From: Vulcanimicrobiota bacterium
GTDB taxonomy: Bacteria; Vulcanimicrobiota; Vulcanimicrobiia; Vulcanimicrobiales; Vulcanimicrobiaceae
NCBI GenBank assembly: GCA_963777315.1
Contig: CAVZQC010000005.1
Location: 1-64,000, forward strand
Reading direction: 5' to 3'
Length of the DNA: 64,000 nt
The position numbers were made by a program, and so were the translations under genes. Each line of letters starts with the position of its first letter. Within the stretch, counting starts at the first letter, position 1. A model generated the notes under the pieces. That model saw only the letters and a program-made list of their open reading frames with translations. It did not search any database and was not told the origin of the DNA. Positions 5,397 to 50,109 of the stretch are shown here, piece by piece.

Positions 5397-5958
5397 AGTC
5401 GCGAACTGCTTCGACACCACGCATCGTAGAAGACCTTCGCGGTTGCTTTTGCCCGTCTGTGTCGTTCCTCGACGGCTTACGTGCCTTCGCACGCTGCACC
5501 GTCGAGCGCCTAACAGCCGGCGCAAAATCATTCCGCGATTCGCCGCGGTTGCTTTTGCCCGCCCGTGTCGTTCCTCGACGGCTTACGTGCCTTCGCACGC
5601 TGCACCGTCGAGCGCCTAACAGCCGGCGCAAAATCATTCCGCGATTCGCCGCGGTTGCTTCTGGCCGTCCGTGTCGTTCCTCGACGACAGCCGGCGCAAA
5701 ATTCATTCCGCGATTCGCCGCGGTTGCTTCTAGCCGCCTGTGTCGTTCCTCGACGGCAGCCGGCGCAAAATCATTCCGCGATTCGTCGCGGTTGCTTTTT
5801 GCCGTCCGTGTCGTTCCTCGACGGCAAAAAGCAGTTCGCGAGTCTTCAGCCGCATTAGACATCGCCTTGTCTCGGCGCAGTCTGGTCTACCCGCTTGGCG
5901 TCTCTCGACGTTTCGGGGCAGCGGCGTGTGTATTGCGTGGACGCCTCACCTAGCGAGG
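5397..5958 (-). ncRNA. M-box (ykoK) Mg2+ riboswitch aptamer, interrupted by a 407-nt insertion in P6
   Basis: Minus strand reads CUCGCUAGGUGAGGCGUCCACGCA...CGCCGCUGCCCCGAAACGUCGAGAGACGCCAAGCGGGUAGACCAG...AAGGCGAUGUCUAAUGCGGCUGAAGAC, then after the insert GUCUUCUACGAUGCGUGGUGUCGAAGC...GCGA. P2 (CCACGCA/UGCGUGG) and P6 (GAAGAC/GUCUUC) pair. It lies upstream of an mgtE-like gene. Confidence 0.88.
5438..5841. repeat. Modular palindromic tandem repeat (A-B-C, A-B-C, A-C, A-C, A)
   Basis: 39-nt unit CGCGGTTGCTT..GCC..C.GTGTCGTTCCTCGACG(G/A)C starts at 5438, 5544, 5650, 5719 and 5787 (periods 106, 106, 69, 68). The linkers are also repeated, so there are no unique spacers. Confidence 0.95.
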
Positions 5959-6011
5959 TATCCTTCTTTCAAGTATAGGCTGGCGCGTCAACCCCCGAAT
6001 TAGCGGGCCTG

Positions 6012-48260: not shown

Positions 48261-49190
48261 ATGATGACACGCGAACATCTGGATTTGCGCCGTCTGCCGG
48301 TTTGGGAGCGCGCCGCGATCGTGCTCGATCGATCGGATGCGCTGGGTGCCGGCGGTTCTTTCGATTTCATGATGGAGAGAGATCCGCGGGCTTTGACCGC
48401 CCGCCTGGAGCAGTTGCGTCCCGGACAACTCGTGTTCGAGCAGCGGCGCGTGGGTGACGCGGAATGGCGCGTCACCCTTACGCGAGTTCGCGCCGAAGAC
48501 AGCTCGTCGTTACTCTCGTCGGCGCTGGCCCGCAGCCCGTTGCTTTCGCAGCTGAGTGAGTCGGCGCGTTCGCTGCTCGGCGAGCGCATGAGCGAGCACA
48601 CCGCGCGAAAAGGCACGGTCGTTTTTACGGAAAACGCCAATTGCGGCACGTTGGGCGTGCTGCTCGAGGGCGCGATGGCAGTGGTCGTGGGCGCGGGAAC
48701 GCGCGAACGGCTGCTGTTTCACCTCTACCCGTTCGATGTGTTCGGCGAAATCGAATTTTTCGACGGGGGCTTGACGATGGGCCGCACGGTGGTCGTTTCC
48801 AAGATTGCCAAATACGGCGCGGTGCCTTACGACGTCGTGCGCCTGATCGGCATGCGCGACCCCGGATTCTTGGTTTCGCTTGCGGCATCGGTCTCACAGC
48901 GCAGCCGCACGCTGGCCAGCGCTTTGGCCGCGCAAGTGTCACAGTCGATTTTGGCGCGAGTCGCCGGCGCGCTGCTGCCGTACGCAGCGCCCGAACGCGG
49001 CCAGCATCCCGCGCTGCAGCCGCTGCCGGCGATGACGCAGGCGCAGGTTGCCGCAGCCGCAGGCACCGTCAAAGAGGTCGCGGCGCGCGCGATTGCCGAG
49101 CTCGAGCGCACGCAAGCGCTGCGGCGAGAGCGCGGCCACATCCGGTACCTGGATCGCTCTAGGCTGCTCGAAACGATCGATCGTTCCTAA
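48261..49190 (+). CDS. Crp/Fnr-family regulator with N-terminal DUF2249-like domain
   Basis: LDLRRLPVWER...ERDPRAL...GDAEWRV; cNMP-like FGEIEFFDG; HTH TQAQVAAAAGTVKEVAARAIAEL. Confidence 0.85.
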   Translation: MMTREHLDLRRLPVWERAAIVLDRSDALGAGGSFDFMMERDPRALTARLEQLRPGQLVFEQRRVGDAEWRVTLTRVRAEDSSSLLSSALARSPLLSQLSESARSLLGERMSEHTARKGTVVFTENANCGTLGVLLEGAMAVVVGAGTRERLLFHLYPFDVFGEIEFFDGGLTMGRTVVVSKIAKYGAVPYDVVRLIGMRDPGFLVSLAASVSQRSRTLASALAAQVSQSILARVAGALLPYAAPERGQHPALQPLPAMTQAQVAAAAGTVKEVAARAIAELERTQALRRERGHIRYLDRSRLLETIDRS

Positions 49191-49905
49191 GACCCTCCCA
49201 AAAGGTTTCCACCGCGTCCAGAACCGCCGCACCCGCGCGCAGAAAACGTTCGGGTTCAAAACCGGGCTGTGCGAATGCCGCCGCCAATTCGTCGTCCACG
49301 TGCGCAGCATGGCGCTCCTCGATCCGGTCGTGCCAAACCCAAAAGCCCAGCGGCAGACCTGGAATACGCTGCTCTTTGATCCGCGTCAGACCGGCGATCA
49401 GCTGTTTCCAAAAGCCGGCCGCAGCCCAGTGTTCGACGGCGTGGGATGCACCGGTGCTTTCGGACGGATCGGAGGACGCGTACCACGTCATCAGCGCATC
49501 GCAGAATTCCAGCGTGGCCGGCGTGCCCAGTTCGCGTCTGCCGATGTCTTCGAAACGCAAGCCCAGCGCCGCGGCGAAATCCGCGAGCCATTCAAAGTGC
49601 GCCGCGCGGAACGTGAACCGCCCGTTTTCGACCGACCCTCCCGGCGTAAAGCTGACGCCGAGTTCGTTCATGAGGATCTCCTTGCCCGCGCGATATGCGC
49701 GCAGGTCGCGCGAGTTGATGCATTTGCGCAACTGGGCTTCGACGAACAAATGGCTGAAGACCGAAAACTGCACGGTGAAATGACGCAACTCGGCGGTGGT
49801 CGCTCGCCCGTGGGCGAACCATGACGCGTAGCGGTTCATCCGAACGATCGGATGATCTTCGATGTGAGCGCTGACGGAAATTTTGAACTGCTCGAGATTC
49901 TGCAT
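49159..49905 (-). CDS. Heme-oxygenase-like di-iron oxidase/oxygenase (HDO; CADD/PqqC/TenA fold)
   Basis: DHPIV N-terminus; candidate ligands NELG...AAHFEW, AVEHW and WHDRIEERH (H-x3-E-x2-H); C-terminal FWEGL. Confidence 0.75.
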   Translation of the reverse strand: MQNLEQFKISVSAHIEDHPIVRMNRYASWFAHGRATTAELRHFTVQFSVFSHLFVEAQLRKCINSRDLRAYRAGKEILMNELGVSFTPGGSVENGRFTFRAAHFEWLADFAAALGLRFEDIGRRELGTPATLEFCDALMTWYASSDPSESTGASHAVEHWAAAGFWKQLIAGLTRIKEQRIPGLPLGFWVWHDRIEERHAAHVDDELAAAFAQPGFEPERFLRAGAAVLDAVETFWEGLRNDRSFRAA

Positions 49906-49933
49906 GGACGTGGTCCCTCAAAGGCAAGGCCGT

Positions 49934-49975
49934 AAACAAAGAAAAAACCGCCCCGGCGCCGGCCGGAGCGGTTTT
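49934..49975 (-). terminator. Intrinsic terminator in the 5' leader of the HDO gene (attenuator)
   Basis: AAAACCGCUCCGG-CCGGCG-CCGGGGCGGUUUU followed by UUCUUUGUUU. Confidence 0.85.
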
Positions 49976-50010
49976 GAACTGAGCTTTTACTGCTTTAGAA
50001 CAACACCGAA

Positions 50011-50070
50011 CTAGCCGACTGCACCGTAGCGGCCGTAATAGTACGAGGTTGCGTAAAGCGCGAACAGCAT
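50011..50070 (-). CDS. Tyr-rich leader peptide MLFALYATSYYYGRYGAVG
   Basis: 19 codons, 5 Tyr including TAC-TAT-TAC; between a promoter and a terminator; below the ORF-track length cut-off. Confidence 0.75.
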   Translation of the reverse strand: MLFALYATSYYYGRYGAVG

Positions 50071-50080
50071 GTTGGGGAGC

Positions 50081-50109
50081 ATCCTATCAGCTCCGCGGCG
50101 AAATATCAA
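50081..50109 (-). promoter_or_regulatory. sigma70-type promoter for leader peptide + HDO gene
   Basis: TTGATA-N17-TAGGAT; predicted +1 at about 50073, 2-3 nt before the leader ATG. Confidence 0.7.

Follow-up and report, generated by a model that had tools for sequence, protein, structure and literature searches.

What task would require a solitary gene for a small helical, putatively metal-binding protein to be placed under apparent control by tyrosine supply? The question is raised by the first 64,000 nucleotides of contig CAVZQC010000005.1 of a Vulcanimicrobiota bacterium (hereafter, the window), where a 248-aa protein with the fold of the heme-oxygenase-like di-iron oxidases (HDO) is encoded as the sole gene of its unit, behind a Tyr-rich leader peptide (Table 1). 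Comparative analysis suggests that this HDO protein is probably a phenylalanine 4-hydroxylase non-homologous to the known enzyme PhhA, an activity deduced from genomes, which would be biosynthetic here and catabolic elsewhere. If phenylalanine and phenylpyruvate are taken together as possible substrates, the assignment as a hydroxylase can be made with considerable confidence. A gene seemingly switched on by lack of Tyr, in genomes that form no prephenate, and the same gene in the first slot of the homogentisate pathway, are joined by one reaction, the para-hydroxylation of Phe.

The most far-reaching form of this proposal, towards which the evidence leans by a small measure, is that a single-gene, pterin-free di-iron Phe hydroxylase of the HDO fold represents another Phe-to-Tyr enzyme of independent origin, as well as the first ring-hydroxylating HDO. 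It would be distributed across several bacterial phyla, haptophyte and pelagophyte algae and phage-like or giant-virus contigs, would be exchangeable with PhhA and with the aroH-tyrA branch, and would possess a Tyr attenuator of its own. The original prediction for this locus preferred a new route of Tyr supply, with hydroxylation of Phe named first, a branch for which phylogenetic profile and gene neighbourhoods provide strong support. The observation on which it was built was borne out as well: the HDO protein with its six ligands of the CADD type is encoded in isolation, and in the Tyr-rich leader region ahead of it both terminator and antiterminator show covariation.

Co-occurrence with tyrosine biosynthesis genes

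The genome to which the window belongs (89.9% complete) encodes chorismate synthase (aroC) and hppD, and no match for PhhA, TyrA, prephenate dehydratase or either of the two chorismate mutase families was detected in it. Among 201 genomes of the phylum, the HDO gene is present in 38, all within the same family of 125 genomes, where 31 carry HDO only (one of them truncated), 66 TyrA only, seven both (one with a split HDO gene) and 21 neither, TyrA being counted above its Pfam cut-off with five weaker matches dropped. The respective numbers for one genus of 44 genomes are 16, 18, 6 and 4. The Fisher p values for HDO versus TyrA, 2e-9 in the family and 7e-4 in the genus, are overstated by kinship.

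Chorismate mutase and prephenate dehydratase were followed in a test set of 75 hand-picked genomes. AroH was found in 1 of 31 HDO-only genomes, in all seven genomes with both genes, in 27 of 27 with TyrA only and in 6 of 10 with neither, and prephenate dehydratase in 2, 1, 14 and 5 genomes of these groups, respectively. AroQ chorismate mutase is present in none of the 31 HDO-only genomes, 30 of which thus have neither chorismate mutase Pfam family, and in the two TyrA-positive loci read, aroH adjoins tyrA. The HDO-only genomes have dropped the prephenate branch; the substrate should therefore come from outside, Phe being the obvious candidate. The counts given here and below include genomes flagged as unpublished, namely G166 (TyrA only), G385-G387 (Lrp, hppD, PhhA, TyrA) and G437 (an hppD locus with neither PhhA nor HDO), on which the conclusions do not depend.

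Two further observations concern the same pathway. Five genomes of genus g2 (G010, G049, G094, G105 and G109) possess chorismate mutase and prephenate dehydratase and have no TyrA, PhhA or HDO match, which constitutes a further unexplained gap in Tyr synthesis. In addition, Vulcanimicrobiota encode fusions of prephenate dehydratase with DAHP synthase (L119:2964-4730) and of DAHP synthase with AroH chorismate mutase (L118:3315-4451).

Phenylalanine catabolism and exchange with phhA

In Actinomycetota, a divergent Lrp/AsnC gene accompanies all 36 HDO loci and hppD lies directly downstream in 34 of them; hmgA is found in 12/36 and a gene for fumarylacetoacetate hydrolase (FAH) nearby in 6/36, and TyrA is kept in 34 of the 36 genomes. 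Similar runs are present on a plasmid of the cyanobacterium Kovacikia (hppD-hmgA-HDO-acetoacetate-CoA-ligase-like-aminotransferase) and on a viral contig (FAH-HDO-hppD). Replacement of HPPD itself by the HDO protein was considered and rejected, hppD being the next gene.

The same slot is used by phhA. Among 151 Acidimicrobiia, 27 contain hppD, and of these 11 carry PhhA, four HDO, none both and 12 neither, so that PhhA is found in 11 of the 23 hppD-positive genomes without HDO; 7 of 13 phhA loci adjoin hppD, hmgA or Lrp. The exchange can be followed in 21 hppD loci from the relatives of one genome: six have the order Lrp-HDO-hppD, two have Lrp-phhA-hppD with Lrp more distant, two more have phhA beside hppD, four consist of Lrp-hppD with no first gene (L247, L248, L254, L257), and in none do phhA and HDO occur together. 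Genome-wide checks of seven of these slot-swap genomes upheld the exclusion. PhhA was found in none of the 97 HDO-carrying genomes, the informative part of this number being the 0/42 among HDO-bearing Actinomycetota.

According to the accessible part of bioRxiv 10.1101/741918, PhhA plays both roles, that of Tyr supply and that of the first step before hppD/hmgA, and in the accessible part of PMC1173090 phhA is often divergent from an Lrp/AsnC gene. Hence, the HDO gene resembles phhA (PF00351) in its proposed reaction, in the two uses made of it (source of Tyr in genomes lacking TyrA, opening step ahead of hppD and hmgA), in its slot and in the divergent Lrp/AsnC arrangement. The two proteins, however, share neither sequence nor fold, the predicted site of the HDO protein is a di-metal one as opposed to the mono-iron site of PhhA, phhB is not found beside 168 HDO loci, and in one clade the HDO gene is presumably under Tyr attenuator control. 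No match to PF00351 (Biopterin_H) was found in the HDO protein or in its own genome. Pterin-4a-carbinolamine dehydratase is encoded in four of five genomes tested and beside 0/168 HDO loci; independence of the enzyme from pterin is plausible.

The predicted tyrosine attenuator

The leader contains one YYY run among its five Tyr residues and is preceded by a promoter and followed by a terminator. Since 10 nt separate the end of the -10 box from the ATG of the leader, translation is probably almost leaderless, provided that transcription starts where the promoter sequence suggests; a TAnnnT box ending 9-10 nt before the leader start was found in 43 of 64 related leaders. The terminator (-25.1 kcal/mol) was equalled in stability by none of 200 shuffles, and the antiterminator (-24.6 kcal/mol) has a z of -2.5. 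Among 18,885 short ATG-started ORFs of the 2.83-Mb genome, the only cluster of Y/F/W/H (at least three in six residues) combined with a terminator is this leader, which the scan returned as two alternative starts.

A leader with at least three Tyr in 8 aa precedes 40 of 44 loci of the Vulcanimicrobiota/Obscuribacterales type and none of the 36 Actinomycetota loci. The four misses comprise an element with two Tyr (L003), a locus with no upstream DNA (L030) and two loci with an intron-like insertion (L021, L028). In the phylum sample, which overlaps the first leader set, 33 of 37 further HDO carriers of the same family have the leader, and of the remaining four, two lie at a contig edge, one has a truncated gene (G085) and one is divergent (G100). 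The link of the homologues to aromatic amino-acid genes and Tyr leaders, on which the original prediction depended, was thus found both in the hppD/Lrp loci and in these leaders, and the profile against tyrA and phhA that it had proposed as a check came out in its favour, HDO largely excluding TyrA (both in 7/125) and PhhA being found in 0/97 carriers.

At the insertions of L021 and L028, both from Obscuribacterales, the apparent 3' end of what we take, from its end motif, to be a group II intron lies in the attenuator, at the U tract of its terminator. Group II introns may target terminators, and an insertion at this position fits.

In 42 aligned leaders, 95.8% of the terminator cells and 87.5% of the antiterminator cells are paired, with two-sided changes in 7 of 12 and 6 of 10 pairs, respectively, although the structures were drawn from the tested sequences themselves, which favours them. 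The covariation score of each structure was reached by 0/500 shuffles and exceeded all slid controls, which for the antiterminator were 19-52% paired. When a ribosome was modelled on the Tyr run, the 5' arm of the terminator paired upstream over 9.3 nt on average, the corresponding values being 2.6 nt for a ribosome positioned at the stop codon and 6.3 nt for shuffles, and upstream pairing was greater in the stalled state in 43 of 44 leaders. These 44 are the leaders in which a terminator was called, out of 59 distinct ones; the finder missed the other 15, most of which have interrupted U tracts, and two weak hairpins that it called (L133, L145) were false.

The leader peptides are 19-32 aa long and contain 2-7 Tyr, which make up 21.5% of their residues and are encoded equally by TAT (144) and TAC (138). 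The conserved hexamer is read in three frames, in 14, 3 and 14 of the 31 pattern-matching leaders (59 leaders in all). Taken together with the equal use of Tyr codons, this indicates that RNA and codon identity are selected, and not the peptide.

The element thus displays the hallmarks of a classical attenuator: a leader ORF with tandem codons, and a mutually exclusive terminator and antiterminator placed such that stalling would free the latter. The RNA structure is shown by the aligned leaders, and its geometry predicts expression at low Tyr by a modelled switch. When Tyr-tRNA is scarce, the ribosome would stall on the YYY run, leaving the hexamer, which lies 15-20 nt further on, to pair with the nascent terminator, and the gene would be read; when Tyr is plentiful, the ribosome would reach the stop codon and cover the hexamer, and the terminator would form. 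Ribosome-dependent attenuators of the trp, his and pheA type consist of a short leader with tandem codons and of overlapping antiterminator and terminator. These features, and covariation, are in common with the present attenuator, which, unlike them, would sense Tyr, precedes one oxygenase gene only, is probably translated from a nearly leaderless start and occurs in both Vulcanimicrobiota and Melainabacteria. No Rfam family matched at the leader. The putative attenuators listed in the accessible part of PMC1173090 precede tyrA operons only.

Fold and predicted metal site

The AlphaFold2 model of the HDO protein, built with 85 sequences, is all-helical (pLDDT 96.1) and has the seven-helix heme-oxygenase-like fold of the HDO superfamily. 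Structure comparison gave HrmI (Z 23.5, rmsd 2.7, 224 residues aligned), CADD (Z 22.6, rmsd 2.4, 213 residues) and BesC (Z 22.0, rmsd 2.8, 214 residues), at 15-19% identity, among the nearest proteins; Z values of 22-23.5 over 211-224 residues for HrmI, FlcD, CADD and BesC are to be regarded as tied where they differ by no more than 1. Over the superfamily (CADD/NePabS, HrmI, BesC, FlcD, UndA, AetD, PolF, SznF, RohS), Z ranges from 20 to 23.5 and rmsd from 2.3 to 3.1, with identities of only 10-19%. The best Foldseek matches of the model are CADD entries (E 7e-6, TM 0.72-0.74).

In a profile alignment, E81, H103, E158, H192, E196 and H199 align with E81, H88, E142, H174, D178 and H181 of CADD, the numbers of the latter being counted from that alignment and the ligands judged by alignment and not by distances in the model. 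The six predicted ligands are conserved in 78-80 of the 85 rows that make up alignment A1 and are invariant in all 12 rows of a cross-domain alignment of bacteria, algae and a virus; they correspond to the 3His/3carboxylate set common to the HDO superfamily and described in the accessible part of the review PMC13108848. Because helix 37-63 bears no conserved acidic residue (E56 in 14/24 rows), a seventh protein ligand is probably absent. The protein would bind two metals and activate O2. The non-ligand residues Arg72, Glu76 and Asn80 on a ligand helix are kept in 23-24 of 24 rows of alignment A2 and could anchor the backbone of an amino acid. Unlike the known HDOs, the protein carries 21 inserted residues between E81 and H103, a stretch that is extended further in many homologues, and its proposed role is in primary metabolism, as opposed to natural products.

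Sequence databases say little about the protein. Its match to PF14518 (Haem_oxygenas_2; 24.9 bits, E 2e-5) stays under the gathering cut-off of 28.9, and some close homologues bear this label; the NCBIfam search gave no match, a PDB search with the single protein as query gave chance matches only, and a profile search of the PDB gave weak HDO matches (best E 7e-4). The ESM Atlas returned only unnamed, TenA-like or PqqC-like clusters, with nothing usable for the cytochrome b5 fusion described below. The automatic labels PqqC, TenA and thiaminase on homologues were set aside as fold-level names, given that the di-metal ligands are conserved and no pqq/thi genes recur nearby. Assignment to the self-sacrificial p-aminobenzoate (pABA) synthases CADD/NePabS was likewise rejected: the position of the CADD donor Lys152 is occupied by Leu169 (Leu or Ile in 80/85 rows), and Tyr26, which aligns with CADD Tyr27, is replaced by Phe in 10/85 rows.

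Proposed reaction and points against it

In this organism, Tyr would be made from imported Phe by a di-iron monooxygenase hydroxylating free L-phenylalanine at C4 to L-tyrosine. The diferrous site would bind O2, and a peroxo-derived oxidant may attack the ring, by analogy with the peroxo chemistry of HDOs and with ferritin-like arene monooxygenases. The two electrons required would come from a partner whose gene lies elsewhere, or from the cytochrome b5 fused to some homologues of probable eukaryotic origin. Catabolism of Phe via hppD and hmgA would begin with the HDO enzyme in Acidimicrobiia, one cyanobacterium and phage-like contigs. Ferritin-like di-iron aromatic monooxygenases of the toluene/phenol type are multi-subunit enzymes for the O2-dependent hydroxylation of arenes, with dedicated effector and reductase genes. 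They offer a chemical precedent for di-iron O2-dependent arene hydroxylation, but differ in fold, and their effector and reductase genes are absent here.

Several observations weigh against hydroxylation of Phe. No reductase or other partner gene recurs beside the bacterial copies. Ring hydroxylation is not among the HDO reactions listed in the accessible part of PMC13108848, from whose full text the term 'aromatic' is absent, nor among the known HDO activities in the accessible part of PMC13133933. Substrates act as ligands of Fe1 in several HDO structures, and binding in this manner could leave C4 remote from the oxidant. The genome context fits Phe and phenylpyruvate alike. HDO and TyrA are both missing from 21/125 family genomes, among them that of the single congener of the present organism, and Tyr auxotrophy is therefore tolerated; in five such genomes, a search run without a positive control revealed no divergent copy of HDO. 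A TyrA-like gene is present in 8 of 17 Obscuribacterales carriers, and no chorismate mutase was detected in the two TyrA-like-bearing ones tested with both families, so the search can miss divergent forms there. In the class sample alone, which is unbiased, the contrast in PhhA (0/4 versus 11/23) reaches a p of 0.12, and 38 of the 97 PhhA-negative carriers come from a family without any PhhA. The leader-bearing proteins sampled form one clade (support 86; all trees in this study are quick trees), and the attenuator hence counts as one evolutionary event. Finally, a homologue of Gloeothece stands in an unrelated context, before a 2OG-Fe dioxygenase and a cysteine-desulfurase-like gene, and not every family member need therefore share the role. 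This plasmid operon (L211:8908-11803), composed of HDO, 2OG-Fe dioxygenase and cysteine-desulfurase-like protein, is possibly biosynthetic.

Alternative explanations

The main rival of Phe hydroxylation is a phenylpyruvate 4-hydroxylase, whose product, 4-hydroxyphenylpyruvate, would be turned into Tyr by an aminotransferase or broken down by HPPD. Such an enzyme is compatible with every genomic pattern, including the HDO gene directly before hppD in the actinobacterial loci and the aminotransferase in the cyanobacterial run. Nevertheless, it appears rather unlikely, as the characterised HDOs mostly act on amino or fatty acids (accessible part of PMC13108848) and the conserved Arg72/Glu76/Asn80 triad could serve to hold an amino-acid backbone.

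An improbable alternative is a salvage enzyme freeing Tyr or 4-hydroxyphenylpyruvate from an O-methylated, halogenated, nitrated or reduced Tyr derivative. Induction at low Tyr, a relaxed need for TyrA and the feeding of hppD would all be expected of it, yet the exchange in the phhA slot and the lack of PhhA in all 42 HDO-bearing Actinomycetota would be left unexplained, and a rare substrate is unlikely to have permitted the repeated loss of aroH and tyrA.

That the enzyme consumes Tyr, for instance as an oxidative deaminase making 4-hydroxyphenylpyruvate for hppD or as a Tyr-modifying oxygenase, might be suspected from the actinobacterial operons, most of which have no aminotransferase gene, with hppD directly next. 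This is very improbable in view of the attenuator geometry, which predicts expression at low Tyr, of the enrichment of the HDO gene where TyrA is missing, and of the existence of Lrp-hppD units without any first gene.

An oxidative prephenate/arogenate decarboxylase in place of TyrA, also put forward in the original prediction, is largely refuted and retains only a slender chance. The anti-correlation with TyrA, the precedent of decarboxylation by UndA and a class II DAHP synthase gene near 8 of 36 actinobacterial loci are in its favour; however, both chorismate mutase families are absent from all but one of the HDO-only genomes, as opposed to AroH in 34 of 34 TyrA-positive genomes tested, and the actinobacterial copies stand in a catabolic operon with hppD, in genomes that mostly (34/36) keep TyrA.

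Equally remote is the idea that the Tyr-rich peptide is itself the substrate, as in ribosomally synthesised and modified peptide (RiPP) or PqqA-like systems, or that, in the manner of CADD, a Tyr of the protein is sacrificed: CADD ranks among the closest folds and its Tyr27 aligns with Tyr26, but the peptide reading of the original prediction is refuted by an unconserved peptide tail, by the three frames of the hexamer after the Tyr run, by the lack of the leader in 36/36 actinobacterial loci and by the absence of any recurring protease, transporter or tailoring gene (thus of a conserved precursor with co-located maturation genes), and Leu169 and the variable Tyr26 speak against self-sacrifice.

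Novelty and significance

In the literature, of which few subscription papers were covered, we found neither this HDO family nor a Phe hydroxylase of the HDO type nor a hydroxylase gene preceded by a Tyr attenuator; similarity tables of HDO papers may list the family. The subfamily is uncharacterised, unnamed and widespread. Should the proposal be correct, textbook amino-acid metabolism would gain a second Phe-to-Tyr enzyme unrelated to PhhA, and the HDO family would gain arene hydroxylation together with a primary-metabolic role. Many genomes scored as Tyr-auxotrophic or as incapable of Phe breakdown (Vulcanimicrobiota, Melainabacteria, Acidimicrobiia, marine algae) would have to be re-annotated, and a small, possibly pterin-free enzyme would be useful for tyrosine-derived compounds in laboratory strains and for Phe removal. 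Cultured carriers of the HDO gene exist, among them Kovacikia minuta, Alkalimarinus coralli and Emiliania huxleyi.

Distribution of the family

Of 8,000 candidates scored, at least 3,403 proved to be homologues of the HDO protein; 375 clusters at 50% identity reach E 0.001 or better, and none bears a specific name. The best 80 of 116 GTDB loci belong to Vulcanimicrobiota, Obscuribacterales/Melainabacteria and Acidimicrobiia; named homologues come from cyanobacteria, Alkalimarinus coralli, Emiliania huxleyi, Prymnesium parvum and Chrysophaeum taylorii, and eight viral contigs carry the gene as well. Among the homologues listed, 4/120 (P0122, P0171, P0296, P0342) have cytochrome b5 fused at the N terminus and are probably eukaryotic. 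Longer fused forms were not found in a search limited to 973-2775 residues and to proteins selected via alignment length. The algal homologues P0334, P0337 and P0357 (Prymnesium, Emiliania, Chrysophaeum) have N-terminal hydrophobic extensions and retain all six ligands.

The phage-like contigs L203 (3995-7009), L205 and L206 (1-2210) contain cassettes of the type HDO-VOC-saccharopine-dehydrogenase-like-FAH or FAH-HDO-hppD amid virion-type genes; these may be auxiliary metabolic genes serving to degrade aromatic amino acids. The annotated phage collection yielded no match to the HDO protein. A homologue with a hydrophobic N terminus is also encoded in a giant-virus genome bin (L209:3887-4762) and groups with a cytochrome b5 fusion protein in the tree. 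In two actinobacterial loci, another PF14518 protein, distinct from the HDO protein, is encoded at a distance of some 4 kb (L055:831-1598). In L011, a record entitled Flavobacterium psychrophilum, leader and gene are nearly identical to those of Obscuribacterales loci, and the bin is probably mislabelled or mixed.

Features of the locus

The coordinates of the elements discussed above are collected in Table 1.

Table 1. Elements of the HDO transcription unit in the window.
Feature	Coordinates	Strand	Remarks
Sigma70-like promoter	50081..50109	-	TTGATA, 17 nt, TG-extended TAGGAT; 1 found versus 0.5 expected
Tyr-rich attenuator leader peptide, 19 aa	50011..50070	-	5 Tyr: residues 6, 10-12 (50043-50035) and 15
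Antiterminator	49958..50019	-	GTCGGC hexamer just before the leader stop with terminator loop/upper 5' arm; plus inner stem
Intrinsic terminator	49934..49975	-	14-bp stem (hairpin 49975..49944), 4-nt loop, U-rich tail
Ribosome-binding site of the enzyme gene	49915..49919	-	GAGGG, read directly from the sequence; 9 nt upstream of the gene
HDO-fold, predicted di-metal protein, 248 aa	49159..49905	-	3His/3carboxylate type; proposed Phe 4-hydroxylase

On its upstream side the unit is bordered by a divergent mgtC-like gene, and the 3' end of the HDO gene meets a convergent gene (48261-49190, plus strand) for a DUF2249 domain fused to a Crp/Fnr-type regulator, with an overlap of 32 bases. The DUF2249-Crp neighbour recurs in seven close loci. 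Both neighbours were rejected as parts of the unit, being lineage-local and on the opposite strand. Elsewhere in the window, an M-box (ykoK) magnesium riboswitch (Rfam RF00380, 70.4 bits) is located at 5810-5964 on the minus strand.

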